A stretch of 41,846 bases of DNA from Methanobacteriota archaeon (GTDB lineage Archaea > Altiarchaeota > Altiarchaeia > IMC4 > SCGC-AAA252-I15): NCBI GenBank assembly GCA_043823295.1, contig JBDRAY010000099.1, forward strand, positions 1 to 41,846, given 5' to 3'. The notes under the pieces are model-generated. The model was not told where the DNA came from. It did not search any database and saw nothing but the letters and a program-made list of their open reading frames with translations. The translations under genes and the position numbers were made by a program. Position 1 is the stretch's first letter, and each line of letters begins with the position of its first letter. This document shows, one piece after another, positions 17,889 to 38,966 of the stretch.

Positions 17889-18203
17889 TTATGGGCAGGG
17901 TGGTCCGCACGCGATTGTACCGCCATAGGCCATCTGTAAGGCATGACAGTACAACCCGCATACTAGGTTGAAGGCGAGGTATGCGACAATCAACCCTACT
18001 ATAGTCCAGATCAGCCCTTTTTTCGCTTCAGCCCTGCCTTTAGGAGACTCTGACATAAGCCATCGCAGTCCTTGAAGAGCAATCATGAATGTGGCTAAGG
18101 CTGCTGCAAGAGTCATTAAGCCTTCATTCAAGTCGAATGCGGACGCATTCCCAGTTAAGGCTGTTAGGATCATGCATGTGAGTTGGATCTTTTTTTTATT
18201 CAT
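17889..18203 (-). CDS. VirB2/TrbC-like pilin candidate (short paralog)
   Basis: Signal peptide (IQLTCMILTALTGNASA) then LAAALATFMIALQGLRWLMSESPKGRAEAKKGLIWTIVGLIVAYLAFNLVCGLYCHAL. The loop and second helix are nearly identical to those of the 118-aa ORF. It overlaps the stop of the upstream 751-aa gene by 8 nt. Confidence 0.6.
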   Translation of the reverse strand: MNKKKIQLTCMILTALTGNASAFDLNEGLMTLAAALATFMIALQGLRWLMSESPKGRAEAKKGLIWTIVGLIVAYLAFNLVCGLYCHALQMAYGGTIACGPPCP

Positions 18204-20451
18204 CCTTGTTTGAAAACTTATGCCTTACAAATTTCGGGTAAGTGCGACGTATCCCGTAGGTTGGATCGATGATGAACTTTACTGCTGATTCCATCCTATC
18301 CCAAGATATGCTGGAGGTAGAGCAAGGTTTGACTAGGAAGAATCCTTGAATTGAGACTGCGATTGTCTTATCATCGAACTCAAAATTTTCAGGCTCCTTA
18401 AATGTTAGTTCGACGTAGTCTCCGGTAGTTAAGTTAAGGTAGTTTCCATCGTCTTCTAAGAGGTAATCCAGAATCTGGCTTTCAGAGTATTTCGTATTGG
18501 ACTCTGCTTTTATTGGAGTGATTTCACGTATTTCTAATTTACCGTCCAACTCGAATTCGACTTGAGCATAGTCTATTTCATACGCAAGCGTTGAGGAATC
18601 GAGTTTAATGTATATTGAGTCGTTTTCAGGCACGTTTAAGACTAATATGTTCTCCTGGATAATGCCCGCTCCCACACCATAAGCCTTCTGCCTTACCCAA
18701 ACTGATCCATCCCACACCTTAACGTTCAGTACTCCTTCACGGTCTCGAAGCTTGTAAAGCGCACTTTTAAGTGGTTCATGCCATGACAATCGCGCGATCT
18801 TTTCAGCATTCAACTTTCCTAAAATATTTTGGAATTCATTCCAAGCATGTGACACTCCACCCGAACCTTTAACTCCTAAAAGAAGCTTGGCCTGGCTCTT
18901 TAAGGGTGGATTCGGAAAAGAGAGTATGATTCCATCGTGCAAGTCCTCAATATCGTATTCATCAATAATGTCGTCGCCATCAGAGTCTCTCAAGTTTTTA
19001 TCGTCGACAGAGCTCATCCAGTATACTCCATCGTTTTCCATGAACTCCAAGCATTCTGTACCATCCTCCTCAAAGCAGGATAATGGTTTGACTGGATTGG
19101 TGGTGGTGTGGAATCCACCATCCAGGTCGGGGTATACCCTATTTTTCTTTTCATGTCCTATGACGAATAATCTCACCTTATCTGTGAAACTGTCCTCAAC
19201 GAGTTCTTCAGTAATGCGTATCTTGTATTCCCCGCCAGATTCCTCTAAGTTTTCCAAAACCGAATACGATTCATCCTCCCAAGGGGGAAGAGCGCTATGA
19301 GGGTAACCTTCATGCTCTAGAACGTATTCACTCCCATTGAAAGAGTATATGAAAGGGCACCCGTCGTCAGGATTTGGAGATGGTGCTGAAGGACAAGTTG
19401 CATCACAATTGCATGCTCTGCCAATGTTGCCTGGCTTGGCGCATTCATAAGATAGCAGGTAGATGACAAGCCCTCTGCCTCCCGCGATGATGATTAATCC
19501 AGCTATAATATACATTAAAGCCTTTTTAGAGTTGTCTCTTTTAGCTGGAGTGTCTGCCGTAAGCCATCCCACTGCCACATACATCATCATGACAGTTCCC
19601 ACTCCCACGGCTATTCTGCTTATGAGGTTTATGATGGGATCAAATGCTTTTTCAACTCCGTCGGCGATACAGTTTGCATTCGCATCCGTGTTTACAGGGT
19701 CAGCCCAGTCTTCTGCGGCATTATCCATTTCATACTGGTCTATCATGCCGTCACCATCTGTGTCGTCACAAGCGTCCCCTTCCTGATCGCATCCCACAGT
19801 GCCTTCATCACAGTAACTGTTCGGCATAGTGCCACCTGGGTTGTTCGCAATAGCAGGGCAATTGTCCACTTCATCAGGACAGCCGTCTCCATCAGCGTCT
19901 GTGACACAGGAACCATCCCACCAACCACACCCGCTCATAACCTTGCATGGATTCACTCCGCAATCCTTGGAATTAACGTAGTCATTGCACTCGAAATTCC
20001 TGGGGCAGTCAAGGCATCTTTTAAATTTATCGGAACTATCGTATTCCGGGACGCAACCTGTGGGAGCCGCCGCAGTACCCCTACAAGGTCCCTCGGGTTT
20101 TCTTCCCCCGCAACCTGCACTACAGTACTCGTAGTCGACAATCCATTCGCACTTTGCCGCACCCGTAGCGTGACATGGGTCTCGATTACACACCCACTCA
20201 AAGTCATAGTCTGAACAGTATATGTCATCTCTATCCGGGCAACTCCGACAAGTCCACAGTAAAATACCCATGTCAGGATAACATATTCCATCACCTGATG
20301 AATCAGTATCATAGTTCACACAATTGTTGAAGCAGGTTACGTCATAACCTACACACTCAATGAATGCAAAATCAAACCAGGCACAGGCTGTTGCTGAAAC
20401 ATTGTTTGAAAGAAAAAATACGATCAACACCGCGACTATTCTATTGTTCAT
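18196..20451 (-). CDS. Cys-rich secreted protein with TSP3-like Ca-binding repeats, an internal VirB2-like hairpin and a roughly 400-aa C-terminal domain
   Basis: Signal peptide (IVAVLIVFFLSNNVSA). A roughly 230-aa region contains more than 30 Cys. Acidic motifs DADGDGCPDEVDNCP and DDTDGDGMIDQYEMDN fit the thrombospondin type-3 pattern DxDxDGxxDxxDNC. The internal module ISRIAVGVGTVMMMYVAVGWLTADTPAKRDNSKKALMYIIAGLIIIAGGRGLVIYLL (about 19447-19650) aligns with the pilins. The C-terminal domain was not recognised. Confidence 0.6.
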   Translation of the reverse strand: MNNRIVAVLIVFFLSNNVSATACAWFDFAFIECVGYDVTCFNNCVNYDTDSSGDGICYPDMGILLWTCRSCPDRDDIYCSDYDFEWVCNRDPCHATGAAKCEWIVDYEYCSAGCGGRKPEGPCRGTAAAPTGCVPEYDSSDKFKRCLDCPRNFECNDYVNSKDCGVNPCKVMSGCGWWDGSCVTDADGDGCPDEVDNCPAIANNPGGTMPNSYCDEGTVGCDQEGDACDDTDGDGMIDQYEMDNAAEDWADPVNTDANANCIADGVEKAFDPIINLISRIAVGVGTVMMMYVAVGWLTADTPAKRDNSKKALMYIIAGLIIIAGGRGLVIYLLSYECAKPGNIGRACNCDATCPSAPSPNPDDGCPFIYSFNGSEYVLEHEGYPHSALPPWEDESYSVLENLEESGGEYKIRITEELVEDSFTDKVRLFVIGHEKKNRVYPDLDGGFHTTTNPVKPLSCFEEDGTECLEFMENDGVYWMSSVDDKNLRDSDGDDIIDEYDIEDLHDGIILSFPNPPLKSQAKLLLGVKGSGGVSHAWNEFQNILGKLNAEKIARLSWHEPLKSALYKLRDREGVLNVKVWDGSVWVRQKAYGVGAGIIQENILVLNVPENDSIYIKLDSSTLAYEIDYAQVEFELDGKLEIREITPIKAESNTKYSESQILDYLLEDDGNYLNLTTGDYVELTFKEPENFEFDDKTIAVSIQGFFLVKPCSTSSISWDRMESAVKFIIDPTYGIRRTYPKFVRHKFSNKDE

Positions 20452-20454
20452 TTC

Positions 20455-22743
20455 CTAAAAAAACGATGAGATTTTTTCCGGAACATCAGTTCTCGGAAGT
20501 ATTTCACCAAGCTTTTGCTGGTAATCCCTTTGAAGCGAAATGTCATCGGAGATTATGAAAAAGTAATCATATTTCTTAAGCACCTTCATCTTGTTTTTAA
20601 CTTCCTCTACAGCCGCCTTAGTGCCGACTCCAGCCGAAACTTCAATTGCGATCATCCTTCCGTCAGGCGCCTCAAACGTCACGTCCGGAAGCTTGGTGTG
20701 GTGTATCAAAGCCTGGTCGGTGAAACTCCTAACCTCCTCAAAAATCATCTGTTGCAATACAAAATGATCGTCCGTCTCACCACTATTGTTAACGATTAAA
20801 AACAATTCACTCTTACCCTGTAATGTAACAACCCTAACCTCCTCAAAACCTCTTTTTTCGAGGAAGATAATCTGCTCGTCGCTTAAAAGCGCCTTATTCT
20901 GCACTTTCTTGCTCAAGTCGAATTCAGTCTGAATCGCGTCACCGGAAGGTTTCTCAATGATTTGAGTTGGCCTGTTGATCATCTCGTCAGGCTTGGTTGT
21001 AATAAGCCTGTATTCTTCAGGGGATGCTTGAATGAAGATGGGAATCCTCGTATTCTCCGCGATAAGAAGCGCTCTGCCCATCGTTGCAATTGATAGGAAT
21101 CTTTGTTCAGCAGTGTTCAAGTTGAATTGGTCGACAATCTGGTCTACTACGGCAACGTCCTGCTTTAAAAGAAGCTTTGTTGCCGTGTTCGTGAGAACAG
21201 CCCGCCCTGCCCTGGTCGTGAGGATGTCTTCCACATCCTGAGTAATCAATATCAATCCTAGATTGAATTTACGGCAAGTCTTAACGATCTTGAGAACATA
21301 CTCTGCTTGCTCTCCCGCAGACAGTACAGTCCAAGCCTCGTCAATAACAAGGATTTTACGAGTTTTAGACTTCTTCATCTGAGTGTAAACGTACTCCAAC
21401 ACTGAAAACATGATAACGCCCTTTCCGACGTCCGGCGCATCCCTTATGTCAAAGGAAACAATCTTCTTGTCGATGTCCATGCGGGTGTGCTGGTTCAGAA
21501 ACCTCATGGGACCGAAAACATAAGGTTTCGTCCGGTTAACAATAGCCCAAGCAGGCTTGTAAATCATCTCCTTACTCGACCTTGTTAAAGGTAAAGCCTC
21601 ATTGTACAAGTCTTCGAGAAGCGGGGGAGTATTACTCCAAGTCTTAGGATCCTGTGTTATGCCCTTATCCTCATAGACGTGCTCTATAGCCTCATCCAGT
21701 ATTGCCGCCTGCGCCTCAGTAAGCTCCCCCAACAAAACCCTGAAGAACGCGAGAAGCGAAAGTTTCTTCTCGTCAAGACTCTGGTCAAGTAGATCAAAGG
21801 GGTTTATAACACTCGTAGAGTCCGGCGCAATCCGGATTACCTTCCCGTCGAAGGTGTTTACCAGCTCGCTGTACTCTGCTTGGGGGTCGATTATGTTTAC
21901 GTCAGTACCCTCCATAAGCTCCCTCATAATGAACAATTTTATCCCGAAACTTTTACCACCACCCGAAGTCCCTAAAACCAGAATGTTGGGGTTGGAAAGC
22001 TCGAAGGGATCTATTATGATTGGGATGCTGTTTATCTCGTTGAATCCAATAAGAATCCCTGACGTATGCTGTTCAAGAGAAGTGATCGCGAAGGGGAAAC
22101 AGGCTGCGGCGGCAGAGGACGTGATGTTCCTGGTTATCTTCAACTCGTCTTTTGCGATTGGCAAGGTTGATTTCACAGCCTTCAGCATCTCGAGGGCAGG
22201 GATCTTTGGGATGATCATGATAGAGTTCATCGTCGACATGACCTGCTTAGCCGACTTCTCAAGTTCTTCCTTAGTAAACGCCTTAACGTCAAGGTAAAGG
22301 CTCATGTCAAACATCTTCTCTGTACCCTCCTGAACCAGGTTTAGGAGGGCCATAGTGTCCTGGTGCTGCTGGACAAGCGCTTGAGGTATGAGCTTTCCTG
22401 AAATCTCAAGGGCGTAGAGGTCTGTTTTCTGTTTTTTAATCTCGTTTTCGAGAAGCTTTATGGTCGAGTCGACTGAGTAGGGTGTTATGTGGATGGCGAG
22501 GTCGAAGTCCAAGTTTATCTCGATGAGCCTTGTAAGCCACCCGGGATCAACGAGCCTCGGATAGTTTATCGCGCAAATCACTTGGTGGTACTTGTTGATT
22601 TGAACGTCTTTAGGGTGGTGTATGATCATTGAGGGTGAAGTCAGGTATTCGATTAGCTTGTCCTCATACTCCTTCATGTTCAGGCTTTCAGCCTTTTTTT
22701 CTTGCGTCTTCTTTTTTCCGAAGGGTAGGAAATCTAAGTTCAT
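20455..22743 (-). CDS. virB4: VirB4/TrbE/TraC-family T4SS ATPase with an additional C-terminal domain of about 170 aa
   Basis: Walker A LVLGTSGGGKSF (21949-21972, K264). Walker B KILVIDEAWTVL (D468/E469, 21337-21342). The N-terminal block INYPRLVDPGWLTRLIEINLDFDLAIHITP is typical of the CagE/TrbE/VirB domain. ITQDVEDIL and LLLKQD blocks lie downstream. It sits next to PrgI-like, VirB6-like and VirB2-like genes. Confidence 0.85.
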   Translation of the reverse strand: MNLDFLPFGKKKTQEKKAESLNMKEYEDKLIEYLTSPSMIIHHPKDVQINKYHQVICAINYPRLVDPGWLTRLIEINLDFDLAIHITPYSVDSTIKLLENEIKKQKTDLYALEISGKLIPQALVQQHQDTMALLNLVQEGTEKMFDMSLYLDVKAFTKEELEKSAKQVMSTMNSIMIIPKIPALEMLKAVKSTLPIAKDELKITRNITSSAAAACFPFAITSLEQHTSGILIGFNEINSIPIIIDPFELSNPNILVLGTSGGGKSFGIKLFIMRELMEGTDVNIIDPQAEYSELVNTFDGKVIRIAPDSTSVINPFDLLDQSLDEKKLSLLAFFRVLLGELTEAQAAILDEAIEHVYEDKGITQDPKTWSNTPPLLEDLYNEALPLTRSSKEMIYKPAWAIVNRTKPYVFGPMRFLNQHTRMDIDKKIVSFDIRDAPDVGKGVIMFSVLEYVYTQMKKSKTRKILVIDEAWTVLSAGEQAEYVLKIVKTCRKFNLGLILITQDVEDILTTRAGRAVLTNTATKLLLKQDVAVVDQIVDQFNLNTAEQRFLSIATMGRALLIAENTRIPIFIQASPEEYRLITTKPDEMINRPTQIIEKPSGDAIQTEFDLSKKVQNKALLSDEQIIFLEKRGFEEVRVVTLQGKSELFLIVNNSGETDDHFVLQQMIFEEVRSFTDQALIHHTKLPDVTFEAPDGRMIAIEVSAGVGTKAAVEEVKNKMKVLKKYDYFFIISDDISLQRDYQQKLGEILPRTDVPEKISSFF

Positions 22744-22744
22744 T

Positions 22745-23686
22745 TCAAGCTTTCTGTGCTGGTGCCTCCTCCTTGGGTTGTTCAGTTTTTCCCGAAGCCC
22801 TTGCCTTGGCTTCCTTAAGCCTTCTCTCCCTCATATGCTGCGGACTCTCCTTCCACATCATGCGATACATGGTGATGGGGCTTATAAAGCTTTCAGCAAT
22901 TTCGAAGGTCTCTGTGAAGTATGAGGAGTAGAAGTTTGTAAGCTGCCCCTTAGTCAGCCTGTCGGATATGATGCCTGAAAGCGAAAGTGTTGCCTGAATA
23001 TTCTCACATCTGGTTTCAAGGTTTTCAATGATAAGTTTCTCATCTCCCTTAACCTCACCTGGAACGATAATGTAGAAGAGCCGGTCACAAATCTTGTTCT
23101 GAGAAATGTATTGCTTCATATAATCCTCAAAATGCTCGAAGTAGGCTAATGCGACCTTGTCGTCACGTTTGGAAATCTTCCTCTTGATGTGCCTGAGATA
23201 ATCGTCCAAATCAAGGTTAACGGACCTCATGGCAATCTGGATTGGGTAAGTCAAGGCATTCAGGAAGTTCAGAAAACCGTAGATGACCATATCCCTGTCT
23301 TGCTCGCTCATTACGGCAAAGTTTATGGGCTTGACCCTAATGACCCCTAATATCCGGCCATCCTTCAGGTAGACTGAGTTCCCCTTAATAGACTTTATAC
23401 CCATTATTTCTCGGGCTGCAGGTGAAAGCCAGGAAAGGGTTTTTTTAGCCCTGAAAAAGTTGAAGTAGTTCTTAATTAGTCTGTCGAGATTGAATTTCGC
23501 AAACCCTATCGTTATCAAACCTACAACGCCGATAATCATTACTTTGGCAGGCATCGGCATGGTCTCCATAAGGTAGACGTACAATGCAATACCCCCTCCA
23601 ATGCCGACGTACACTGATTCCTTTAAAGTGAACGGCCCTAAAATCTTCTCTTCGTAATGGACGTTTTGGGGTATGGCGTATGGCAT
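22745..23686 (-). CDS. PrgI/VirB3-like membrane protein with a roughly 230-aa soluble extension
   Basis: The N-terminus MPYAIPQNVHYEEKILGPFTLKESVYVGIGGGIALYVYL plus a second TM (AKVMIIGVVGLITIGFA) matches the PrgI-family pattern (VP.di...eeKi.G.lT.rq). The gene lies immediately upstream of virB4 (1-nt gap), the usual VirB3 position. The extension contains ILGVIRVKPINFAVMSEQDRDMVIYGFLNFLNALTYPIQI. Confidence 0.55.
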   Translation of the reverse strand: MPYAIPQNVHYEEKILGPFTLKESVYVGIGGGIALYVYLMETMPMPAKVMIIGVVGLITIGFAKFNLDRLIKNYFNFFRAKKTLSWLSPAAREIMGIKSIKGNSVYLKDGRILGVIRVKPINFAVMSEQDRDMVIYGFLNFLNALTYPIQIAMRSVNLDLDDYLRHIKRKISKRDDKVALAYFEHFEDYMKQYISQNKICDRLFYIIVPGEVKGDEKLIIENLETRCENIQATLSLSGIISDRLTKGQLTNFYSSYFTETFEIAESFISPITMYRMMWKESPQHMRERRLKEAKARASGKTEQPKEEAPAQKA

Positions 23687-23769: not shown

Positions 23770-24363
23770 ATGGTTTTGAAAAGTAGGCCTAAGTGGCCTG
23801 CGTTAAACGGTCAGGTACATTCCGACACTCACCCTCTTGAAGTTCAGGGTTCCTTCCCGAACCTCCTTTTTGACGCTGCGGCGGTTAAAAAACTTACTGA
23901 AACACACTTTTCAAGTGTTAGGGAGGAGGCGAGCAAGCTCACCCAAGATTATCCTTCGCTTGATGGAGTATTGGTAATCTATCCGAAATCCTATGGAAAT
24001 CCCCCTTCAGCCGTTTCCCAGGGAGAACCCGCGCAAGAACCTGTCGAAGGCTTCTACTGTTACCTCGTCTTTGACAGGAACGGTTTCTTTACAAAAAAAA
24101 GACCCGGGAGTCCGAACCCCCTCCACCATGAGGACCGTGAAAGGGCAGAGGAAACTCTCTCCCACGGTTTAATGGGCAGGCCCGTAAACATGACCGGGTA
24201 TCTATTCCGAGACACGCTTGTCGAAGGTGATAACGGGTTAATTCACGATCACAGGATTCTGAATGTGCCAACCCTAAGCGACCGATACAGAGTTCATAAC
24301 CTAATTTACGTTCCAGTTGACAGTAACGAGCCAGTAAAACAGGTACTCCCACAACCCAAATAA
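23770..24363 (+). CDS. Hypothetical soluble protein (only plus-strand gene inside the core locus)
   Basis: 197-aa ORF with an ATG start, no TM helix and no recognisable motif. It lies between the two minus-strand operons. Confidence 0.45.
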   Translation: MVLKSRPKWPALNGQVHSDTHPLEVQGSFPNLLFDAAAVKKLTETHFSSVREEASKLTQDYPSLDGVLVIYPKSYGNPPSAVSQGEPAQEPVEGFYCYLVFDRNGFFTKKRPGSPNPLHHEDRERAEETLSHGLMGRPVNMTGYLFRDTLVEGDNGLIHDHRILNVPTLSDRYRVHNLIYVPVDSNEPVKQVLPQPK

Positions 24364-24367
24364 AAAA

Positions 24368-25501
24368 TCATCTCCCGTAGTAGACGTCGCTCGGCTGGAA
24401 GGATTTCGCAATCTTTACAGAGCTTATGAACTGTCTCTCCTCCACGTAGCCTTCCTCCTTCATGAGCTTTATCATCGCCCTGTATTGTTTTTCGGTGGGG
24501 TGTTCCCGGTCGTAGTCTTCTAGGTCGAATATTTCTTGGGCTGAGAGTTTGTCGATTTCGAAGACGTCTTCAATGTTTATGAAGAATATGTCAAGTAGTT
24601 TCTCCAGTTTCGTGTATTTCTTCTTGTTTCTCCTAGCATCCTCAATTTTCTTCCATGCCCCGATGGGTGCCCACTGGTGGCCTAAGTATTCTCCTGCATA
24701 AGAGTATTGCCCCCTGAATTTTACGTTATCCATCCACCACAAGGCCGCAAGCTTGCTTGATTCACCCATATTATACCACATGGGACCTTTGAACGGTTTA
24801 AGAGCCTCCCTACGCGAGTATGACCCCCCAAAAAGACCTGCAGTGGTTTGCGCCCCCCCATCCTCCTCCTCTAAACCAGTAGTCATGAAGGATCTTACTG
24901 AATCAACAATGTCTGCCACAGCTTTCGCGTAACTCCTACGTTTTTTCGGATGCTCGAAAGCATCCTCTGAAATTTTCCCGGCAAGCTTGAATAGCGTGCT
25001 TGCGGCATGCTCGGCCCGAAACCCGCTTCCCTCAGGGCCTCCGGATCCTCCACCCCCGTCTCCGCCAAAGATTAAGAATCCTCCAGATGCGAATTCCTTT
25101 TTCAGCATCTTTTTAGTTCCGGGTTCAAGAAGCTCTCCCAGGGTAGTGCGTTTTTCCCTGCTTAGTCTTCCATGCTCCTGCGGGACTCTCATACTAACTA
25201 TCGTATTGTCTGGAACGCCATCTTGTTGCATGCGCTGGGCTTGCTCAAGAGCCTGGTCTAACTTAACCTCCACAATTTCTTCTTTAAGGCTGATTTCGGA
25301 AATCTCAACGGGGTCGGGCTTCTTCCCCCCTTTTTTAAATTCGCCGAAAGCCTCTATCTTCAAAACCTTCTTGATGTTTGATTCGTCGAAATCCTTTTGT
25401 TTTTCAGTTATTATGGGGCCTCCCCTCTCAAGCATTTCAAGTCTCTTCTCTTCAATGCTTTTCTCGCGGTCCTTCATGTCCTTGGGTTTTTCATCATCCA
25501 T
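24368..25501 (-). CDS. Hypothetical charged soluble protein with an internal poly-Gly tract
   Basis: 377 aa. Highly charged N-terminus, a GGDGGGGSGGPEGSG linker and a Trp/Tyr-rich C-terminal domain (PMWYNMGESSKLAALWWMDNVKFRGQYSYAGEYLGHQWAPIGAWKK). It lies 6 nt downstream of the VirB6-like gene, so it is probably co-transcribed. Confidence 0.55.
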   Translation of the reverse strand: MDDEKPKDMKDREKSIEEKRLEMLERGGPIITEKQKDFDESNIKKVLKIEAFGEFKKGGKKPDPVEISEISLKEEIVEVKLDQALEQAQRMQQDGVPDNTIVSMRVPQEHGRLSREKRTTLGELLEPGTKKMLKKEFASGGFLIFGGDGGGGSGGPEGSGFRAEHAASTLFKLAGKISEDAFEHPKKRRSYAKAVADIVDSVRSFMTTGLEEEDGGAQTTAGLFGGSYSRREALKPFKGPMWYNMGESSKLAALWWMDNVKFRGQYSYAGEYLGHQWAPIGAWKKIEDARRNKKKYTKLEKLLDIFFINIEDVFEIDKLSAQEIFDLEDYDREHPTEKQYRAMIKLMKEEGYVEERQFISSVKIAKSFQPSDVYYGR

Positions 25502-25507
25502 TTTAGA

Positions 25508-27328
25508 TTACTTTTTCTTTTTAGGCGTCTTCTGTGGTTTTTTCTTTTTCTCCCGAAGTAGATCACTCTCCTCGGAAGCCCTCTCTCTGAGACGTTCCAT
25601 CGACCTCAAAGCCTTACCTCGGGTAATGTCTTTTTTCGCCTCACCAACCCGGCGTTCAGCATCCTTTTTCGCTTCATCGACCTGATTTTCAGCCTCCTTC
25701 TTCATCTCATCGAATTTAGTTCCCTCACGGCCTTTAATAGGCCCAACGTTAGGTGAAACAGGATTTAAGGATCTTGCAATAGGAAAAGAGGTTTTTGATT
25801 GTCTAACTCCCCCTTCACCCGCCGGCGCGGAAGAAACACGTTCACCTGAAGCCCCGTAAGTTTCACCCGAAGCTCCGTATCTTTTCCCTTTAGAACCCCT
25901 CATCTGAGGTAATACCCTGCCGGTAGTATCTTCTTTCATGTGTGCTTGAAGGCTTCTGTCAGCAGCCCCCTCGTACCTGTCGCTTCTAGCTGGTGCCTTC
26001 CCAGCCGACCAATCCGACTCTGTCGGCCCTTCAGCTTGATCCCGCATAGCCTCAACCTCCCTTTTAGCCGCATCCCCCGCATCCTTATGTTTTTTACCCC
26101 CACCCCTCTTAGGACTGCCCGGACTTGAAAACCCAGCTCCCGCATCACCTTCAGCTGGTCCGGCCCCTCCAACAGCTCCTCCAGAAAGCCTTGAAACAGT
26201 TGACGGACTGAATGCGCCACCTGGTCTTCCCAACCCTGCTCCGTATCCCCCAGACTGCAGTCCCGCGATCATGCTTGCCTCGGGGATAGCCCTGGTTAGC
26301 ACACTTTTCGCTGCGTGCAGCGCGGCATCTTGCCTGCCTTGAAGCAATCCTCCAAGACCTGTAATCCACGTGTTGTTTGACGCAAGTCCTGCAGCGAATA
26401 TTCCCCCACCAACCATGTTCATTAAATGGTTCATAGTAAGCGGTGTCGCACCAACCATTACCAGCCCGACCATCGTCATGCCCCAGGAGATGATAGCACC
26501 CATGATTGGGGGGCCGAAAACTGCCGGTTGCCAATGGATTAACATGGGCCCAACCGAATTCATTGCGCTTAAAGTAAATACGAGCCATAGAATTTGGACT
26601 ACTGGAGTGAAAATCCAGTTTACTGCCTCTTTAATGTATTTTCTACCCCAACTGCGCGTTAAGTCGAAGAAATATAGGAAGATGAGTATTGGAAAAACAG
26701 CGGCATATGCGACTACGAAAAAATACCTTAACAATGCCATGATGAGCGTCCAACCAAGAATACTCAACATAATGATAAAAACACAGCACACGCCAAATAT
26801 TTCACCTCCAGTAGCTGCTTCAGTCATGGTGTTTAAATCCCCTAGTGTGGTCGCATTGCTGTTATAAACCGCATCCACCAGTGCTGAGGACAAGTCAAGA
26901 AGCGTTTGGTAGATTATGGGTGCCATGGCGACCAATATCATGCTGAACAACAGCTTGGAAAGCATTGCCTTAGCCCTCGCCCTTCCTCTCGGATTCGTGG
27001 ACTTGACTATGTAATATAGTGCTGTGAAAAGCACTGCGGAAATGTATAAGGGTATTAGTATGCTAGTGAAATACGGGAGTAGGGCGTCTATTCCCGCCGA
27101 CACTTCACAGTTTCCAGTACTGTCCCAACAGTATATTGTGGGGTTCATGATGATGAATCCTAAAAGAAGATCCATCTCCCATTCAAGCAATGGGATCATA
27201 AGCGCCATTAGACCTGAAAAAAACTTCCAAGTGTTTGACTGGGATTGGATCGGGATTGTCGCTCCAACCTGAACTAAAGTGAAGGAAATCAAAACCAAAA
27301 CTACGATGTAAACCTTAATCTTGTTCAT
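25508..27328 (-). CDS. VirB6/TrbL-like polytopic membrane protein with a Gly-rich and Lys-rich C-terminal tail
   Basis: About 7-8 TM helices in the first roughly 370 aa. It is clearly paralogous to the N-terminus of the 1654-aa ORF (PTIYCWDS../PTIYPFDK..; LRYFFVVAYAAVFPILIFLYFFDLTRSWG vs FRYLVVQLLAIFFPLSFFLFFFDYTRTLG; WIFTPVVQILWL vs WIFMPVAQVLVL). The tail ends in EKKKKPQKTPKKKK. I prefer the ATG at 27328 (MNKIKVYIVV...). The alternative upstream ATG at 27403 would overlap the preceding gene by 89 nt. Confidence 0.6.
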   Translation of the reverse strand: MNKIKVYIVVLVLISFTLVQVGATIPIQSQSNTWKFFSGLMALMIPLLEWEMDLLLGFIIMNPTIYCWDSTGNCEVSAGIDALLPYFTSILIPLYISAVLFTALYYIVKSTNPRGRARAKAMLSKLLFSMILVAMAPIIYQTLLDLSSALVDAVYNSNATTLGDLNTMTEAATGGEIFGVCCVFIIMLSILGWTLIMALLRYFFVVAYAAVFPILIFLYFFDLTRSWGRKYIKEAVNWIFTPVVQILWLVFTLSAMNSVGPMLIHWQPAVFGPPIMGAIISWGMTMVGLVMVGATPLTMNHLMNMVGGGIFAAGLASNNTWITGLGGLLQGRQDAALHAAKSVLTRAIPEASMIAGLQSGGYGAGLGRPGGAFSPSTVSRLSGGAVGGAGPAEGDAGAGFSSPGSPKRGGGKKHKDAGDAAKREVEAMRDQAEGPTESDWSAGKAPARSDRYEGAADRSLQAHMKEDTTGRVLPQMRGSKGKRYGASGETYGASGERVSSAPAGEGGVRQSKTSFPIARSLNPVSPNVGPIKGREGTKFDEMKKEAENQVDEAKKDAERRVGEAKKDITRGKALRSMERLRERASEESDLLREKKKKPQKTPKKKK

Positions 27329-27839
27329 CTTGGGATTTTCGAATCCTTGAAGCTCTTTGAGCTTCCATAATTCCTTTTTTTGCGAGTTCGTCCAATCTTT
27401 CATTTGGGATGTTGTATTTCCCTATTTTTTCGGAGAATATTTTATCGTCTTCGCGAATCTTCTTTTCGGTTTCGTTTGCCTTCCTCCCTTCCGCCCAGAG
27501 GGTTTTCCCGATTTTGAACTCGCATTTACTGCACTTTAAATTTTCTCCGTCTTCTTTCAGATACGACAAATCTTTTTCCTTGAATATCTGCTCGTCGCTG
27601 TTGCATGTGGGGCAAAGGTTTTTTTCGAAAGTTACGTTCCACATGGGAGTTCTCGTAAGCCTTTGACCCCTTAAGGTGTAGTCCTTATACTTGTGCCTTA
27701 CAATAGTCTCATAGATTTTCTGCCGTGCGTCATCTTCATTCAAGTTGTGTCTTGCAAGCCAGTTTTCTGCAAAACCCTTAATTACTTCCTGCTCTCTCCT
27801 GCTTAACGGGAGTTTTGCCGTGTATTTTTTATCTTCCAT
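27315..27839 (-). CDS. Zinc-ribbon protein (CxxC...CxxC), function unknown
   Basis: 174 aa with a CPTCNSDEQ ... LKCSKCEF four-Cys ribbon. Both termini are charged and helical. It lies 3 nt downstream of the 1654-aa gene. Confidence 0.55.
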   Translation of the reverse strand: MEDKKYTAKLPLSRREQEVIKGFAENWLARHNLNEDDARQKIYETIVRHKYKDYTLRGQRLTRTPMWNVTFEKNLCPTCNSDEQIFKEKDLSYLKEDGENLKCSKCEFKIGKTLWAEGRKANETEKKIREDDKIFSEKIGKYNIPNERLDELAKKGIMEAQRASRIRKSQDEQD

Positions 27840-27842
27840 TTT

Positions 27843-30800
27843 TTACGTCACCCTACTTCCGGGCGCTACTGGAGTCGAAACCATGTTTTGCAATCCAGTG
27901 AATAGTTCGAATACTCTGCGAGTCTCCCCTCCCATTGACGGGGCTGAAAAGTCGTGTCCCGCCGCACGGAAGGCTTCGTCAATCGTCATCTTATCTGGGG
28001 CTGATGCAGTTCCAGTCAACGCTTCAACACTTGCCCTTACTGCCGCTGAATCGGTAGTCCCCAATGCGGCGTCTAATCCTTGGGCACGCCTTTCAAGCTC
28101 CTCTGCAATTGCTGCCGCCTGGGCCATGTTTGCCGTATCGTTATCAGAAATACTTCCCTTCGGATTTATTGCTCTTTCGGCATAGATGTTTGTGGCCTCT
28201 TGCAAAGCCTTCGTCTGGGTTCTGATGTAGGCTAACTCTTCCTCTTGCGCGGCAGGTAAATCTGCGGGTGAAGCTCTCGCCTGGTTTTGAGAGTGTCGTC
28301 CAAGCTCGACGGCCGAGGCTAAAGTCTCGTCTACTGCCATTCCCGCGTCTGTCGGATTAAATCCCGAGCGTCGTATCTGAGTTCTTCCACGAGCGACGGC
28401 TGCATTACCCCCGGAAATAACCGTTTCGTCGAGTCTTTCCCCAGAGATTATTATTTTTTCATACATGTCTTCAGCAGTCGTCACCTGCTCCCGGGAACCG
28501 GCTCCCGAGGCCGCCCAGCTTACAAGCAGGTGCCCTCCTTCGTGACCTAACGCGGGTATGACACTTTCTCCTGTGGGGGTATCTCCATTGAAAATATCAG
28601 CCTGAAGCATTTTGCTTCCTGCATTGAGTACCAAAGTTCCAGTCGTCTTTTCTATTGCATACGGATTTGCGTCTCTCCAGTCGTAGTCGAATTTAATCGC
28701 CTTAGGCCGCATGGCTTCGGGAAGGCTTGCCGCGTGGGCTGCGTAGCGCATGAGAAAGTCGTTTACCCTGGATCCTGGCAATTCCTTCTGCACGAGCGCG
28801 TCAGCTTCGTCAGAGTCTATGTAGACGCCCAACTTCTTCATGGCTTCAAGCTGCTTCCCCCTCTCCGTTAGGAACGCGTCGTCCACAGTCTTTGTAATCC
28901 TTGACTGGGTTGTCGGATCCCACACTTCAACAGTATCCCCCATCGTGTAGTTTTCAGTCAAGACTCCCGCCCCTCTAAGGTGTACTGTATCACTAGTTCC
29001 TCCAAAGTAGGTTGAATTATTTTCAACGAATTTTCGGGCGTGAGCTGGACTTTCAATATGCACGACGCCTGCCGTAGTGGGAGTGTACTGTCCCTCATAA
29101 TTATACTTTCCAGCCCCGCTTGCAGCCTTCTCATCATAGTGGCCGGCAAGATCTGACAAGGCTATGAAACCTCTACCCTCCCTAATGCGGTCAGCCCGAT
29201 AATCCAAATCCACAGCTTCACTGTGACGACCCGCCTTCCTCCTCTGCTTTGCCCCCTCCCTGAATTCACTAACCGTTTCTCCCACTTGCTTTTTCTCCAC
29301 CCTGAATCCGTAAACCAGGTTGCCGCTCGCATCCCTTTCCTGAACGAGCTCGTCCCTGTCGAAACTGCGCGATTTTTTTACTCCGTCGGTAAAGCTTATC
29401 TGCGCGTTTCTTCCCCCGTGCTTGCCGATCGACTGGTAAAGCGGGTCCTCAGCTGCATGCAGCAACTCCGACTGAAAAGTCCCGTAAGTCGTGTTTCTGT
29501 CAAGTAAGGTGCCACTACTCTCAAACGATTCCGGAAGTGTTGCGACGTTTCTGACCATGACCTTCCCCTCGCTGTCGGTAGCCCAATTCTCTTGCTTTTC
29601 CACAATCGCATGTCTCTTATCTCTCTTAACGTCTGCAGCTGCAATGTCTGCAGGGGTTCCACTTGCCCTAAGGGCCTCTTCCTCCCCCCTAAGCTTGTTC
29701 ACCATCTGCGTATTCGTTACCTTCTCCTCTTTATCATAATAGCCCTGCAAGATTGGCTCTATTCTCACTCTCTCAACCTGACCTCCTTCGTAAGCCATCC
29801 TCTGCCTCAAGTAAGAGTAGTCTTCCTGGTTTAAGAGCATGGCCCCGCTTTCAGTCCTCTCCAAGTCCATGGTCAAGCTCATGGCACCCGTCTGAGGGTC
29901 GAGGATGCGCTCCATCGGGGTGGCTGCTGCCATCTCTTCGGGAGTAAGCTGCACGTATCCAGCAAGCCCTCTGGCGGTGAAAGCCCTTGAGGCGTAATCT
30001 CCCATCTCGGCAAAAGCAACAGCATTGTCAAGAGGTTTCGCTCTATACAACTTCCCCTCATCATCATCCTTCTTCGACATACTCGCCTGAGCCGACTCCC
30101 TCTCTTTCATTGGTACTGTTTCAGGGTTCCTATGACCTATCCTGTGGGCTCTGAAATGCGTTAGAAGGCTTTCCCTCTTTTCCCCCCATTCATTAGCGGC
30201 CTCACTACTTAAGGTTCCGGCACGCTTTCTCCTGGAAACCTCTTTCTTGAAATTATCATCATTCAAATCAACTATCTCCTCGGAAAAGATTTTACTCCAA
30301 GCCTCCTTCTCAGACACTTGGTCAAAAGTCCTTGCCCCAAGTGAAGCATCTGCTATCTCCTGCCGCTTATCCCCCACCCTCGACTCTAAATCCCTGACAA
30401 GCTCGGTTCCAGGATGCGCTTCATAACCCTTACCTTCGCTTAAAGACTGGGAATCCGCCAAAACCAACTTGAAGATGTCCTGCCGCTCATCCTTACTAGA
30501 ATAATTGTTTTCCAAGCTAGTCAAGCACGCTTGGACGTAGTTGGGATCCCTCTCATTTAAAACATCAGTCCCCTCCCGCAAAGCATCCAACGTCCCACTA
30601 ATAGCACGCACGTGTCTGTCTCGCTTGGCTCTATAATGCGCTTTCACATCATTCCTTCTCGCATCATTAGCAGTGGTTCCATCAAATTTCGTAAGTTTAA
30701 TCAACCTCGCGTCAATCTCAGCAAGCCTTCCGCCAGTCGCAGTTAGCCGCTCTTTTTCAAGGTCTTCGATTTCAGCAAGCGTTCTACTTGCACTCGAAGC

Positions 30801-32807
30801 CTTCTTCGCTATTCCACCCCTCCCCATTATTCCCCAAAGCTTCCTCCCTGCTCTACTCCTCCCATGGACTTGCCTGAAGCCCATACCCATCATCCGATTT
30901 CCAACCTGATAACCCACCCAACGAGCGCCAGGAGGCAGAAGCTGAGCGCTCGTACCAACAATAAAAGCTCCTATCTGGCGAATAGGCTCAAAAGGACTAA
31001 TAGGCATTAAAGCGAAGCCAACACCCTTAACACCCCTTATGAATGCGCCTGCAATCGCCATCTTAGAAGCGCCGGGAGTTTTTGCAAGCTCCATAGCGTA
31101 ATGCAAAAGAGACATACCTCTAAGCCCTTGCGAAGTGCCCCTGTCCACAGCCCTCATAACCGCATCACTGTCGACGAGCATGGGGGCTATGTGTTCACTC
31201 CACCATCGAGTTGGGTAGCTTAAGTCTTGGCCATGTAGCGTTTTCATACCTGTGGGACCTCCCTTACCATAACGCCATTCATCCGGGACGTTACCACCCA
31301 TACCTCCACCACTCCTAAAATCAGGAGCCTCAGGCACGGAAGTTGTGGCTGTCACGTCAGAGCCCTCTACTCCCCCTCCTCCAGTGCCGCCAGCCCCGCC
31401 GCCGGAAGCCTTGTCAGGGTGTTTTGGAACCCTGGTCCCCGTCTTATACCCGTGGTAACTCTCCCTCGCCCCCCGGGCAATATTCCCTCCTGTTCTTGCC
31501 ATACCACTACCATAAGCGCGGCCTGACCCTGTGAAAAATCCACCGACAGCCCCTAAAATACCACCTCGGCCATAACCTCTACTCACACCCCTCCCAATCT
31601 CACCGTAAGGCTTCATAGTCTCCTTGACACCACCCCACATTCTACCCCAAATACCACTCATACCCGGAGTAGTCTGTCCGGCCCTCAAGTAACCCACCTG
31701 AGCGGCGCCTGCAACAATGGAATCAGGTCCGAAGCCCATCCCAATCTGGCCGACGCTTTGAAGCATGGCGCCTGAAAACGTGCCTCCCCGCGCAGCCCCC
31801 ATCGCGGCTGTTATGCCTCCAACCCACTTGAGCATTCCAGTCACCATCAAGCCCGAAACAGCGAAAGCGGTCATCCCCGCCAAAACGACCAAACCGTGAG
31901 CTAGGAAGTGGTCTGGAACTCCCCCACCAGTCAAGGCGATAACTGTTATTGCCAGCACTAAGACCTGGGCGACGGGCATGAAAATCCAAAGTATTGTGGT
32001 CCGAAGAAGGTTAGCTCCTAAAGTTCGGGTGTAGTCGAAGAAAAAAAGGAAGAATGAGAGCGGGAAGAAAATCGCAAGTAATTGGACTACCAAATACCGG
32101 AAGGCTAGAATTGCCAGTCCGATAACGGAGATTATGATCGGCAACCAACCAAGGATGACGGCTTGGGGACCTAGGAAAGCAACTACTACGCCGTTTACAA
32201 CCTTATCCGACCAATCATCCTCAACAATATTCCATATGGTTTTGACCATATCCAATTCAATATCCAACAGCAACTGAAAGAGGGGTGGGGAAATAGAAAC
32301 TAAAAACATGCTCATCAAAACCTTGTTAAACTGTGACTTAGCCAATGCCCGGTCGCTGGGGGATATTGAAACATAGACTATGTAAATCGCGATCAGAAGG
32401 AGGAGTATTCCATAAAATGGGATAAGCAACTTTAATATTGTTTTAGTAAGGTTGGAGACTGCGGGATTACCCTTATCAAAGGGGTAAATCGTGGGATTCA
32501 GCCTTAATGACCACCCAACCAACCATAACAATCCTTCAACGACAGGCTCAAGGAGGAATGTGATGAAGGCGTAAATCTGTTTGACAGCTATGTGTACTAA
32601 TCCGAGGAATCCCTTACCTAAGTCGAGGAGTCCTTTACCAGATGCTATGTACCACGTCCAACTCCCAATGTTTGCCAAAGCACTCTTCTCAGTATCCCAA
32701 CCCTGCCCGCAGGTGTTCAAGGCCAAAGAGAAAAATACTGCGGTGATTAATAGGGTCAATAATACCGTATTCCATTTGGAGTTTTGCGAATTATTTACTC
32801 CTTTCAT
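27843..32807 (-). CDS. Extended VirB6-like protein (1654 aa): N-terminal polytopic domain, Gly-rich linker and a roughly 1200-aa soluble region with an HExxH motif
   Basis: The first roughly 345 aa are paralogous to the 631-aa VirB6-like protein. A Gly-rich segment follows (ASGGGAGGTGGGGVEGS). The long soluble part carries ALGHEGGHLLVSW (HEGGH at residues 1422-1426, nt 28530-28544). Confidence 0.6.
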   Translation of the reverse strand: MKGVNNSQNSKWNTVLLTLLITAVFFSLALNTCGQGWDTEKSALANIGSWTWYIASGKGLLDLGKGFLGLVHIAVKQIYAFITFLLEPVVEGLLWLVGWSLRLNPTIYPFDKGNPAVSNLTKTILKLLIPFYGILLLLIAIYIVYVSISPSDRALAKSQFNKVLMSMFLVSISPPLFQLLLDIELDMVKTIWNIVEDDWSDKVVNGVVVAFLGPQAVILGWLPIIISVIGLAILAFRYLVVQLLAIFFPLSFFLFFFDYTRTLGANLLRTTILWIFMPVAQVLVLAITVIALTGGGVPDHFLAHGLVVLAGMTAFAVSGLMVTGMLKWVGGITAAMGAARGGTFSGAMLQSVGQIGMGFGPDSIVAGAAQVGYLRAGQTTPGMSGIWGRMWGGVKETMKPYGEIGRGVSRGYGRGGILGAVGGFFTGSGRAYGSGMARTGGNIARGARESYHGYKTGTRVPKHPDKASGGGAGGTGGGGVEGSDVTATTSVPEAPDFRSGGGMGGNVPDEWRYGKGGPTGMKTLHGQDLSYPTRWWSEHIAPMLVDSDAVMRAVDRGTSQGLRGMSLLHYAMELAKTPGASKMAIAGAFIRGVKGVGFALMPISPFEPIRQIGAFIVGTSAQLLPPGARWVGYQVGNRMMGMGFRQVHGRSRAGRKLWGIMGRGGIAKKASSASRTLAEIEDLEKERLTATGGRLAEIDARLIKLTKFDGTTANDARRNDVKAHYRAKRDRHVRAISGTLDALREGTDVLNERDPNYVQACLTSLENNYSSKDERQDIFKLVLADSQSLSEGKGYEAHPGTELVRDLESRVGDKRQEIADASLGARTFDQVSEKEAWSKIFSEEIVDLNDDNFKKEVSRRKRAGTLSSEAANEWGEKRESLLTHFRAHRIGHRNPETVPMKERESAQASMSKKDDDEGKLYRAKPLDNAVAFAEMGDYASRAFTARGLAGYVQLTPEEMAAATPMERILDPQTGAMSLTMDLERTESGAMLLNQEDYSYLRQRMAYEGGQVERVRIEPILQGYYDKEEKVTNTQMVNKLRGEEEALRASGTPADIAAADVKRDKRHAIVEKQENWATDSEGKVMVRNVATLPESFESSGTLLDRNTTYGTFQSELLHAAEDPLYQSIGKHGGRNAQISFTDGVKKSRSFDRDELVQERDASGNLVYGFRVEKKQVGETVSEFREGAKQRRKAGRHSEAVDLDYRADRIREGRGFIALSDLAGHYDEKAASGAGKYNYEGQYTPTTAGVVHIESPAHARKFVENNSTYFGGTSDTVHLRGAGVLTENYTMGDTVEVWDPTTQSRITKTVDDAFLTERGKQLEAMKKLGVYIDSDEADALVQKELPGSRVNDFLMRYAAHAASLPEAMRPKAIKFDYDWRDANPYAIEKTTGTLVLNAGSKMLQADIFNGDTPTGESVIPALGHEGGHLLVSWAASGAGSREQVTTAEDMYEKIIISGERLDETVISGGNAAVARGRTQIRRSGFNPTDAGMAVDETLASAVELGRHSQNQARASPADLPAAQEEELAYIRTQTKALQEATNIYAERAINPKGSISDNDTANMAQAAAIAEELERRAQGLDAALGTTDSAAVRASVEALTGTASAPDKMTIDEAFRAAGHDFSAPSMGGETRRVFELFTGLQNMVSTPVAPGSRVT

Positions 32808-32848
32808 TCACATAGTTTATTAGTTTAATCCCTCTAAATAATTAAAAA

Positions 32849-34415: not shown

Positions 34416-34742
34416 TTAACCGCACTGTTGGCTGTATATTAATGATACAACTTCTACTGCTATCAATACGATCACTAGTCCGACCACGGCGTGCACAATA
34501 CCTTCTTTGGCTTGCTTTCTCGCTCCAGGGTCGTCTGAGGATCCGATCCACTTGATACCGTTAATAACGATAACCAAGGTCGCAACAGCTCCGGCAATCA
34601 TCTCCAGAAGCCAGCGAATATTGTTCACTATAGAACATATTTGCTGTGCTGTTGTTTCGCTCCATGTTCCCACGGTCGCTTCAGTAGCCACCACGAAGGA
34701 GGCTAACAACAGAATGCCTAATAACGGCAACATTTTTTTCAT
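34416..34742 (-). CDS. VirB2/TrbC-like pilin candidate (divergent third short paralog)
   Basis: Signal peptide (MKKMLPLLGILLLASFVVATEA) then LLEMIAGAVATLVIVINGIKWIGSSDDPGARKQAKEGIVHAVVGLVIVLIAVEVVSLIY. This is the same helix-basic loop-helix layout as the other four modules. Confidence 0.5.
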   Translation of the reverse strand: MKKMLPLLGILLLASFVVATEATVGTWSETTAQQICSIVNNIRWLLEMIAGAVATLVIVINGIKWIGSSDDPGARKQAKEGIVHAVVGLVIVLIAVEVVSLIYSQQCG

Positions 34743-38141: not shown

Positions 38142-38966
38142 ATGAGACGGCCTGATTTAAGCCCAAGGAAGATGGAACTTAAGGGCGATTACGTTAATGG
38201 TCTCTTAGGATTAGATCTAAGTGGTTCAGAGATTTCAGGGCTTCTAGAAAAAATGAGGTATGGGGTGGAGGAAAAAAACGGTGTTTTATCCGTCTCCGTC
38301 CCCGCCTACCGCACAGACGTCCTCCATCCAATGGACTTGGTCGAGGACGTGGCCATTGCATACGGATACCACAACTTCAATCCTCAAGACATAAACATAC
38401 ATCTTAAAGCTCGGGAGGATCCGACCGAAAAATACTCAACTCTAATGCGGGATGCGATAGTGGGCTTGGGATTTACCGAAGTCATGACTCTCATACTCAC
38501 AAACAAGGAAAATCTATTCACGAAAATGGAGTTCCCGCAAAAAGATGTGGTTGAAACCGAAAACCCTGCGTCAATCGAGCACTCTGTTTGCCGTAGCTGG
38601 CTTACGCCTTCCCTTATGACCGTCCTTGCCAAGAACAAGACTCGGGAGTTCCCGCAAAAAATATTTGAGGTTGGGGACGTCGTCCAATCCAAGGGAGGCA
38701 ACGGAAAAAATGTCGCATGCCTTCTGTCACATGCGAAAACCAACTTCTCAGAGATAAAGTCAATCTTTGAAGGATTATTACTCACCTTCAACGTTGAATT
38801 CGAGGTTAAACCTTCAACTCACCCGAGCTTTCTAGCAGGGCGTTGCGCTGAGACTGGATTCGGATTCTTCGGTGAAATACACCCTAAAGTAATCGAGAAC
38901 TTCGGTTTGGAGATGCCGGTGACGGGCTTTGAACTGCGGCTCGAAAAAATTTTCCCCGGTATCTGA
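38142..38966 (+). CDS. pheT: Phenylalanyl-tRNA synthetase beta subunit, C-terminal half only (B5 plus catalytic-like domain)
   Basis: The ORF begins at the B5 domain (VNGLLGLDLSGSEISGLLEKMRYGV...LSVSVPAYRTDVLHPMDLVEDVAIAYGYHNF) and runs to a normal C-terminus (..FGEIHPKVIENFGLEMPVTGFELRLEKI). Archaeal PheT is roughly twice this length. No N-terminal B3_4 part lies upstream, where the neighbour is an unrelated membrane gene. Confidence 0.75.
   Translation: MRRPDLSPRKMELKGDYVNGLLGLDLSGSEISGLLEKMRYGVEEKNGVLSVSVPAYRTDVLHPMDLVEDVAIAYGYHNFNPQDINIHLKAREDPTEKYSTLMRDAIVGLGFTEVMTLILTNKENLFTKMEFPQKDVVETENPASIEHSVCRSWLTPSLMTVLAKNKTREFPQKIFEVGDVVQSKGGNGKNVACLLSHAKTNFSEIKSIFEGLLLTFNVEFEVKPSTHPSFLAGRCAETGFGFFGEIHPKVIENFGLEMPVTGFELRLEKIFPGI

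Follow-up and report, generated by a model that had tools for sequence, protein, structure and literature searches.

We analyzed a 41,846-nucleotide (nt) stretch of an archaeal genome from the Altiarchaeota (GenBank assembly GCA_043823295.1, contig JBDRAY010000099.1, positions 1 to 41,846 of the forward strand; hereafter, the window), which contains an operon resembling a type IV secretion system (T4SS) with two VirB6-like proteins. The longer of the two, referred to here as the extended protein, is the 1654-amino-acid (aa) product of a real open reading frame (ORF) at 27843-32807 on the minus strand. Near its C terminus lies an HExxH motif that is real and well beyond chance, because it is conserved in the same alignment column across orthologs and distant relatives. 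The initial annotation, made from the DNA letters alone, had regarded the motif as a possible chance occurrence and the peptidase call as weak; this conservation, together with an invariant downstream Glu (E1494), makes the call stronger than expected. The long member of the VirB6-like pair may well be a zinc metallopeptidase tethered at the cytoplasmic base of the machine.

Architecture and relatives of the extended protein

Composition and hydropathy analyses bore out the layout first proposed for the 1654-aa ORF, with a Gly-rich linker followed by a long charged soluble region. The parts of the protein are as follows (window coordinates; residue numbers are those of the extended protein):

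27843..32807 (−): whole ORF, extended VirB6-like protein, with full-length orthologs at 85, 39, and 33% identity
32703..32807 (−): residues 1-35, signal-peptide-like hydrophobic N-terminal segment (hydropathy)
32451..32702 (−): residues 36-119, amphipathic helical region with a conserved NPTIYP loop, probably extracellular (charged helices; Cys pairs in relatives)
32265..32459 (−): residues 117-181, first transmembrane (TM) hairpin, resembling VirB2-type pilins, with the cytoplasmic-loop motif sP..R..aK (Pfam T4SS_pilin matches; pilin alignment)
31830..32450 (−): residues 120-326, polytopic membrane core of ~5 TM helices, paralogous to the 631-aa protein (BLASTP, hydropathy, profile comparison)
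31218..31829 (−): residues 327-530, flexible linker of low complexity, rich in Gly (20-38% per 40-aa window)
30828..31217 (−): residues 531-660, conserved module, basic and rich in Pro and Gly, …SPFxPIRxxG…LPP…GxxMMGxGxRQ (family alignments)
28728..30827 (−): residues 661-1360, rapidly diverging region of high charge, without TM segments or family matches
28278..28727 (−): residues 1361-1510, zincin-like domain with three predicted strands, the HExxH helix, and a Glu-bearing helix (family alignments; low-confidence model)
28530..28544 (−): HEGGH, the HExxH motif, H1422-E1423-G-G-H1426 (alignments)
28326..28328 (−): E1494, invariant Glu in the motif E-[TV]-[LI]-A, a candidate for the third zinc ligand (14-sequence alignment)
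27846..28277 (−): residues 1511-1654, helical C-terminal tail, conserved among close orthologs only (ortholog alignment, model)

By hydropathy, the hydrophobic segments of the membrane core fall at residues 120-148, 163-181, 206-258, 267-293, and 301-326, and no segment of TM strength was found past residue 326 in the extended protein or in its relatives. AxA-type cleavage sites (AQA-Q and VSA-D) are visible in the N-terminal segment of orthologs in the alignment, where cleavage is predicted. From residue 660 on, the protein is hydrophilic, with windows that are 15-45% charged, mostly >20%. The middle region evolves fast (32-40% identity, with many indels), and a BLAST comparison of the extended protein with itself revealed no internal repeats. 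Scanning the whole protein and five overlapping pieces of it against Pfam and NCBIfam returned nothing but a weak T4SS_pilin match. PDB sequence searches with the protein and its family profiles matched only artificial Gly-Ser linkers, which are also the only PDB matches of the linker at 327-530.

A word-index search returned only three full-length orthologs. The closest genome record, with 84% identity over the whole protein, was that of SCGC AAA252-I15 (candidate division pMC2A384), a genome placed in the Altiarchaeales by Bird et al. 2016 (PMC4975002). When a profile of the tail (residues 505-1654) was run exhaustively with HMMER against 1.84 billion representatives, 22 proteins were recovered, of which ~16 are large (1200-2261 aa, some truncated) and have the same layout as the extended protein: membrane core, Gly-rich linker, basic module, divergent charged region, and HExxH near the C terminus. 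All distant relatives bearing an organism name are labeled "Candidatus Altiarchaeota archaeon." Their membrane cores share the motifs NPTIYP…, SP..RA.AK, FP…FLYFFD.TR, and MKWVGG, and the basic module reads …SPFxPIRxxGR…LPP…W.G..MMGLG.RQ across the family. Outside the membrane core this module is the family hallmark, being the best-matching stretch in nearly all distant relatives, with P602, S604, P608, R610, G613, P625, G636, G641, and R645 near-invariant. Two fragments, P0008 and P0010, matched the C-terminal tail (residues 1511-1654) in an HMMER profile search. Some relatives carry further elements: a second HExxH lies further downstream in P0013 and P0018 (IRHEELH and IRHEKLH), P0018 also has an HD/HDIG-like motif (weak NCBIfam match), and P0009 continues beyond its HExxH domain with a long linker rich in Pro and Thr and a further C-terminal domain.

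At the 5′ end of the gene, only 41 nt (32808-32848) separate the ATG of the ORF from the GTG of the divergently transcribed neighbor, and an AT-rich, TATA-like stretch lies ~30-40 nt upstream of the ATG. This arrangement suggests that the extended VirB6 gene may be expressed as a leaderless or short-leader archaeal transcript.

The HExxH…E site

The HExxH reported near the C terminus, at nt 28530-28544, was confirmed as residues 1422-1426. Its loss in orthologs had been named as an outcome that would refute the call, but the motif proved to be conserved: all four full-length orthologs, down to 33% identity, carry HExxH in the same alignment column. L1420, G1421, H1422, E1423, H1426, and E1494 are invariant in these four sequences, in which invariant columns make up just ~10-28% of the region around the motif and E1494. 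Among 12 more distant relatives that reach the motif region, 9 carry HExxH, and the other 3 carry HExxxH. When 14 sequences with 10-34% identity to the extended protein were aligned over this region, H1422, E1423, H1426, and E1494 were the sole invariant columns. By comparison, any HExxH appeared in 2.7% of composition-preserving shuffles of the extended protein.

A third zinc ligand had been anticipated 18-30 residues downstream of the motif. A candidate was indeed found, the invariant E1494, but it lies 68 residues after the second His. In the family this Glu recurs in the context E-[VTIM]-[ILVM]-A-x. HExxH plus a distal Glu is the signature of the gluzincins (clan MA(E)), and in families M13, M34, and M48 the Glu lies 45-76 residues downstream of HExxH. 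The extended protein resembles gluzincins in its HExxH, in the position of the invariant Glu in a predicted helix, and in the predicted strands ahead of the motif (…IKFDYD / NPYAIE / LVLNAG), which correspond to strand-like conserved blocks in the family ([FY]Y.D..D, NP..V..D, and L.[VI]N[LM]G). In a low-confidence AlphaFold2 (AF2) model, the elements follow the order strand-strand-strand-helix, HExxH helix, and helix with E1494, a predicted arrangement that fits the zincin layout. Unlike gluzincins, the domain has no detectable sequence similarity to curated peptidase families, and its fold is predicted at low confidence only.

E1494 is thus a candidate third zinc ligand, and the HExxH…E site would coordinate zinc in the manner of gluzincin peptidases. 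The site is a probable zinc-dependent hydrolase, most likely a peptidase; the HExxxH relatives, the lack of a family match, and the low-confidence fold model are the reasons why we grade the hydrolase as probable only. The domain appears to represent an uncatalogued zincin family. Assignment to the metzincins was rejected because the extended motif HExxHxxGxxH is absent: the sequence is HEGGHLLVSWAA, which, counted from the second His, lacks the Gly at +3 and the His at +6. A profile comparison (hhalign) of the HExxH domain with the ArdC-type zincin of R388 was likewise negative.

Membrane core, topology, and proposed role

The N-terminal region had been described as a paralog of the 631-aa VirB6-like protein encoded next to it, and this relationship was confirmed: residues 77-350 of the extended protein align with residues 60-355 of the 631-aa ORF at 30% identity (BLASTP, E=8e-30), and hhalign paired the extended N-domain family with the short-paralog family at a probability of 100% (E=4e-64). 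The short paralogs in turn provide the link to VirB6. Three of the five short-paralog proteins scanned (that of the window and four orthologs) matched Pfam TrbL (E=3.9e-4, 1.5e-3, and 3.8e-3), all three collinearly at model positions ~87-214; these matches are sub-threshold, at 17.5-20.7 bits versus the PF04610 cut-off of 25.9. One short-paralog ortholog carries a precomputed TrbL_3 match. PrgH, an accepted VirB6 homolog, itself scores just 29 bits against Pfam TrbL. The AF2 model of the N-domain is all-helical, and its top four Foldseek matches in the PDB, none of them significant, were R388 TrwI/VirB6 chains (PDB 7o3v/8rtd), with TM-scores of 0.19-0.42 for a model with a predicted local distance difference test (pLDDT) score of 56.6. 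Two traits of TrbL/VirB6 proteins are present in the extended protein, namely ~5 or more TM helices (by hydropathy) and location in a T4SS locus near VirB3- and VirB4-type genes, and the order of the VirB6-like, VirB3-like, and VirB4 genes is that of prgH-prgI-prgJ in pCF10. Because the extended family has no TrbL match and the short-paralog matches are sub-threshold, we infer VirB6 status; on this evidence the N-domain is probably a divergent VirB6-like platform protein.

Within the membrane core, the first TM hairpin has a second affinity. The hairpins of both VirB6-like proteins (32265-32459 and 26900-27100, both [−]) align with the VirB2-type pilins of the operon (those compared lie at 34416-34742, 17889-18203, and 4544-4900), and the loop motif sP..R..aK is common to all of them. 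Pfam T4SS_pilin matches were obtained for 9 of 20 members of the extended family (best E=1.9e-5) and for several short paralogs, in which the T4SS_pilin match and the TrbL match tile the domain. These alignments hint at a pilin-like module inside VirB6-like proteins.

Features of the loops bear on the orientation of the protein. In relatives, pairs of Cys occur both in the N-terminal region and in the loop at 101-119, and many relatives have Ser/Thr/Pro-rich insertions of 60-100 aa at the 294-300 loop, which suggests that these loops are extracellular. The loop at 149-162 (SP..R..AK), which is basic, can be aligned with the inter-helix loop of the window's VirB2-type pilins; in membrane-embedded VirB2-type pilins, that loop is cytoplasmic. 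Both the conserved module and the stretch that follows the last TM helix are basic as well. Given these loop features, the basic post-TM sequence, and the absence of a later TM segment, the predicted topology is N-out, 5-TM, and C-in, with the ~1300-aa tail in the cytoplasm. The same topology has been reported for Agrobacterium VirB6.

The function that we favor for the extended protein, with about even confidence, combines this topology with the HExxH…E site. The tail would be flexibly tethered by the ~200-aa Gly-rich linker to the channel platform on its cytoplasmic side, and the basic module at 531-660 might attach it to the machine or membrane at the cytoplasmic face. The HExxH…E site would then act as a zinc metallopeptidase at the cytoplasmic entrance of the apparatus, by analogy with the peptidase domains fused to some ABC exporters. 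The protein cleaved might be a substrate, a component of the machine or one of its pilin-domain proteins, or the extended protein's own tail.

Several results weigh against this interpretation. A direct match to a TrbL/VirB6 profile, which had been expected of the N-terminal domain, was absent: none of 20 proteins (the extended protein and 19 relatives) matched Pfam TrbL/VirB6 (PF04610 and its relatives TrbL_2 and TrbL_3) at E<=1. The TrwI/VirB6 matches of the N-domain model (built from a 6-sequence multiple sequence alignment [MSA]) were non-significant in Foldseek (E=0.1-0.7). Comparison by hhalign of the N-domain families with PrgH, with the PrgH family (E=0.04-0.09, probability <=1.3%), and with TrwI (E=0.5), all with shallow templates, was not significant either; the region paired with PrgH each time, collinearly, was the R…P…FF.D/E.R..G stretch. 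For the tail, 3 of 16 relatives reaching the motif region have HExxxH in place of HExxH, and so the site may be dispensable or non-catalytic in some members. The HExxH domain has no sequence match in Pfam, NCBIfam, or the PDB and belongs to no curated peptidase family. The AF2 model of residues 1236-1654 (4-sequence MSA) reached a pLDDT of only 49.9, and a Foldseek search of the PDB with that model gave noise, with no match at E<=0.001. Finally, the long Pro/Thr-rich linker after the HExxH domain of P0009 is more typical of extracellular proteins.

Some of these points favor other explanations. The initial annotation had suggested that the extension is a delivered or exposed effector. In this case, the tail would be extracellular or threaded into a neighboring cell, where the protease would act on the envelope or cytoplasm of the target. 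We retain this explanation as an unlikely one because the middle region diverges fast while the catalytic motif stays fixed, because of the linker and extra C-terminal domain of P0009, and because the C-terminal domain of F-plasmid TraG, proposed to thread into the neighboring cell, provides a precedent. The long, flexible Gly-rich tether would also fit threading, and the operon encodes a 3918-aa subtilase/lectin-domain protein that is probably extracellular. The topology evidence disfavors it, however: the C terminus of the membrane core is placed in the cytoplasm with no later TM segment, the tail lacks an export signal, and the tails of the short paralog and of P0005 are rich in Lys and Glu and end in strongly basic sequence, as is typical of cytoplasmic segments. 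A bolder version, which strikes us as distinctly improbable, would have the channel subunit carry its own payload, with the tail fed through the T4SS-like machine or self-cleaved and delivered to a neighbor cell as an archaeal "specialised effector"; the pilin-like hairpin would, in addition, suggest that VirB2 pilins and the VirB6 platform share an ancestor.

The tail could also be mainly a scaffold or docking arm, with HExxH…E as a structural metal site, a non-peptidase hydrolase, or a partly inactive enzyme. The HExxxH of three relatives and the lack of a peptidase family match speak for this, as does the fact that conservation in the tail peaks in the basic module at 531-660 and not in the HExxH domain; moreover, extended-VirB6 domains have no known function according to a 2025 review (PMC12857230). 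A purely structural metal site, however, would not need the motif Glu, and yet both His residues, the general-base Glu, and the distal Glu are invariant at otherwise 10-34% identity; we regard this explanation as doubtful. That the HExxH is a functionless chance motif has a negligible probability: a four-residue pattern can arise randomly, as the shuffles illustrate, but this one keeps its alignment column throughout the orthologs and the distant family and is accompanied by an invariant Glu downstream. It is also very improbable that the N-domain is no VirB6 homolog and instead a pilin-derived, lineage-specific membrane protein or a permease-like protein. The complete lack of TrbL matches in the 20 members, T4SS_pilin as the sole recurrent Pfam match, the non-significant hhalign results with the PrgH family and TrwI, and the NCBI name of relative P0024 ("ABC transporter permease") would be in line with such a protein. 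They are set against collinear TrbL matches of three short-paralog proteins to the same half of the model, the score of only 29 bits for PrgH, an accepted homolog, VirB6 as the best PDB fold match, and a gene order like that of prgH-prgI-prgJ.

Operon, genomic setting, and known systems

The genes around the extended VirB6 gene that make up the core of the operon are given here in transcription order:

34416..34742 (−): 108-aa T4SS pilin, encoded 5′ of the extended VirB6 gene (synteny)
27315..27839 (−): 174-aa CxxC…CxxC zinc-ribbon protein (synteny)
25508..27403 (−): 631-aa ORF, short VirB6-like paralog (BLASTP; orthologs match Pfam TrbL below threshold)
24368..25501 (−): 377-aa conserved operon member of unknown function (synteny)
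22745..23686 (−): 313-aa protein with a PrgI (VirB3-like) region and a VirB4/TraC-like segment (family matches)
20455..22743 (−): 762-aa VirB4-family ATPase, closest to the CD1110 family (NCBIfam)

The core order of pilin, extended VirB6, ~174-aa protein, short VirB6, ~360-aa protein, PrgI/TraC-like protein, VirB4, and pilins was seen again in six independent assemblies, whose extended proteins range from 85% down to ~20-25% identity to that of the window. In every relative examined, the extended VirB6 gene is preceded by a pilin gene. The pilin gene is directly adjacent except in loci L002 and L003, where one gene intervenes, as in the window, where a divergently transcribed 506-aa gene separates the two. 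The zinc-ribbon protein (173-176 aa) is encoded between the two VirB6-like genes in all loci examined, and it has no family match. The true start of the short paralog is probably Met26, near nt 27328. VirB4 matched the NCBIfam CD1110 model at E=3.6e-87 (293 bits versus a cut-off of 325). Following VirB4 in transcription order are 751-aa and 104-aa pilin-domain proteins, a 3918-aa protein, and 376-aa and 118-aa pilin-domain proteins, and the window holds five pilin-domain ORFs. VirB4 and PrgI are present and no coupling protein (T4CP/VirD4) or relaxase was detected in the window, so that a full conjugative set of the mating-pair formation class MPF-FATA (VirB4, T4CP, and relaxase) was not found there.

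The locus occupies the same chromosomal position in divergent genomes. The flanks of the window encode A-type ATPase subunits, aRF1/eRF1, PMT_2 glycosyltransferases, and a fragment of the phenylalanyl-tRNA synthetase (PheRS) beta subunit, and four of the six loci (L002, L003, L007, and L008) lie beside the same housekeeping genes (eRF1/split pheT and/or PMT_2). A split pheT has been reported as a signature of the Altiarchaeales (PMC4975002), and the window shows the same split. A mobile-element origin was rejected as the primary explanation because of this fixed position (eRF1, split pheT, and PMT_2) and because no integrase, relaxase, or T4CP was present. The locus looks like a lineage-wide chromosomal T4SS/pilus-like apparatus across the Altiarchaeota and not an obvious mobile element.

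Among known proteins, the extended protein is best filed as an extended VirB6 that differs from others in its archaeal host, its family-wide HExxH…E site, and its conserved basic module. F-type TraG, like the extended protein, joins a membrane platform to a large extra domain; its C-domain is periplasmic and has no known HExxH site, whereas the tail of the extended protein is predicted to be cytoplasmic, and no Pfam or NCBIfam match to the N- or C-terminal profiles of F-type TraG was obtained. PrgH (pCF10) and TrwI (R388) are likewise polytopic, and their VirB6-type genes lie directly upstream of VirB3-like/VirB4 genes; in contrast to the extended protein, both are tail-less (266 and 342 aa, respectively) and score above the Pfam TrbL threshold. 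The extended VirB6 class, defined by Alvarez-Martinez and Christie as summarized in PMC12857230, comprises proteins with five or more hydrophobic helices and a large central or C-proximal hydrophilic domain, and by hydropathy and composition the extended protein matches that description. Like the RvhB6/VirB6 paralogs of the Rickettsiales, it combines hydrophobic helices with a very large hydrophilic C-proximal region, and in the Rickettsiales, too, several VirB6 paralogs lie side by side in one locus (PMC7648143), and the function of the extension is unknown (PMC12857230). Unlike the Rickettsiales proteins, it belongs to an archaeal host and to a pilin-rich system with monoderm-type VirB4/PrgI and no detected coupling protein, and unlike bacterial extensions, with which it shares no sequence similarity, its tail has the family-wide HExxH…E site and the conserved basic module. 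The T4SS of Patescibacteria (candidate phyla radiation), as described in PMC12102498, are similar in being chromosomal and MPF-FATA related, with VirB4, PrgI, PF18895 pilins, and usually no relaxase, in a lineage that is uncultivated and mostly small-celled. They differ in that the host here is an archaeon, and no extended VirB6 with a metalloprotease motif was found in the passages of that paper that were searched.

In the 2025 review (PMC12857230), the role of the large additional domains in extended VirB6 proteins was still described as unknown. Here, the extension has a recognizable and mutable catalytic-type site (H1422, E1423, H1426, and E1494), which makes the question experimentally approachable. 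The T4SS-type systems known from archaea serve plasmid conjugation or are the Ced/Ted DNA importers (PMC12857230), and our literature searches found no description of a T4SS for Altiarchaeota or DPANN archaea. The present analysis documents a pilin-rich T4SS-like operon, with no coupling protein detected, at a fixed chromosomal position across the Altiarchaeota.

Several further observations concern the neighboring genes. The 313-aa protein consists of a PrgI/VirB3-like N terminus followed by a segment matching VirB4 model positions 72-277, and the 762-aa VirB4 begins at model position ~200-277; VirB4 thus appears to be split, with its N-terminal part fused to VirB3. The same fusion is kept in relatives, where it is annotated as "TraC-like." In the 751-aa (18196-20451 [−]) and 376-aa (4902-6032 [−]) proteins, a T4SS pilin domain is fused to extra regions, which in the 751-aa protein include a thrombospondin type 3 repeat. 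In the 3918-aa protein (6069-17825 [−]), an S8 subtilase and its I9 propeptide are accompanied by lectin-like Laminin_G_3, GH20b/GH123-N-like, and MopE-like metal-binding motifs; this probably extracellular protein may be a giant surface adhesin/protease. An S8 gene also lies downstream of the pilins in L008. A 680-nt gap in the operon is filled by a 197-aa ORF on the opposite strand (23770-24363 [+]) with no family match. L001 has neither the gap nor the ORF, and in L003 there is a 173-aa counterpart; the ORF may or may not be a real gene. The PheRS beta-subunit fragment (38142-38966 [+], 274 aa) is present only from the B5 domain onward. In L007, two radical-SAM/SPASM genes and genes for a tetratricopeptide repeat protein and a RecA/KaiC-like ATPase lie between the ~354-aa and PrgI/TraC-like genes (18596-20729).

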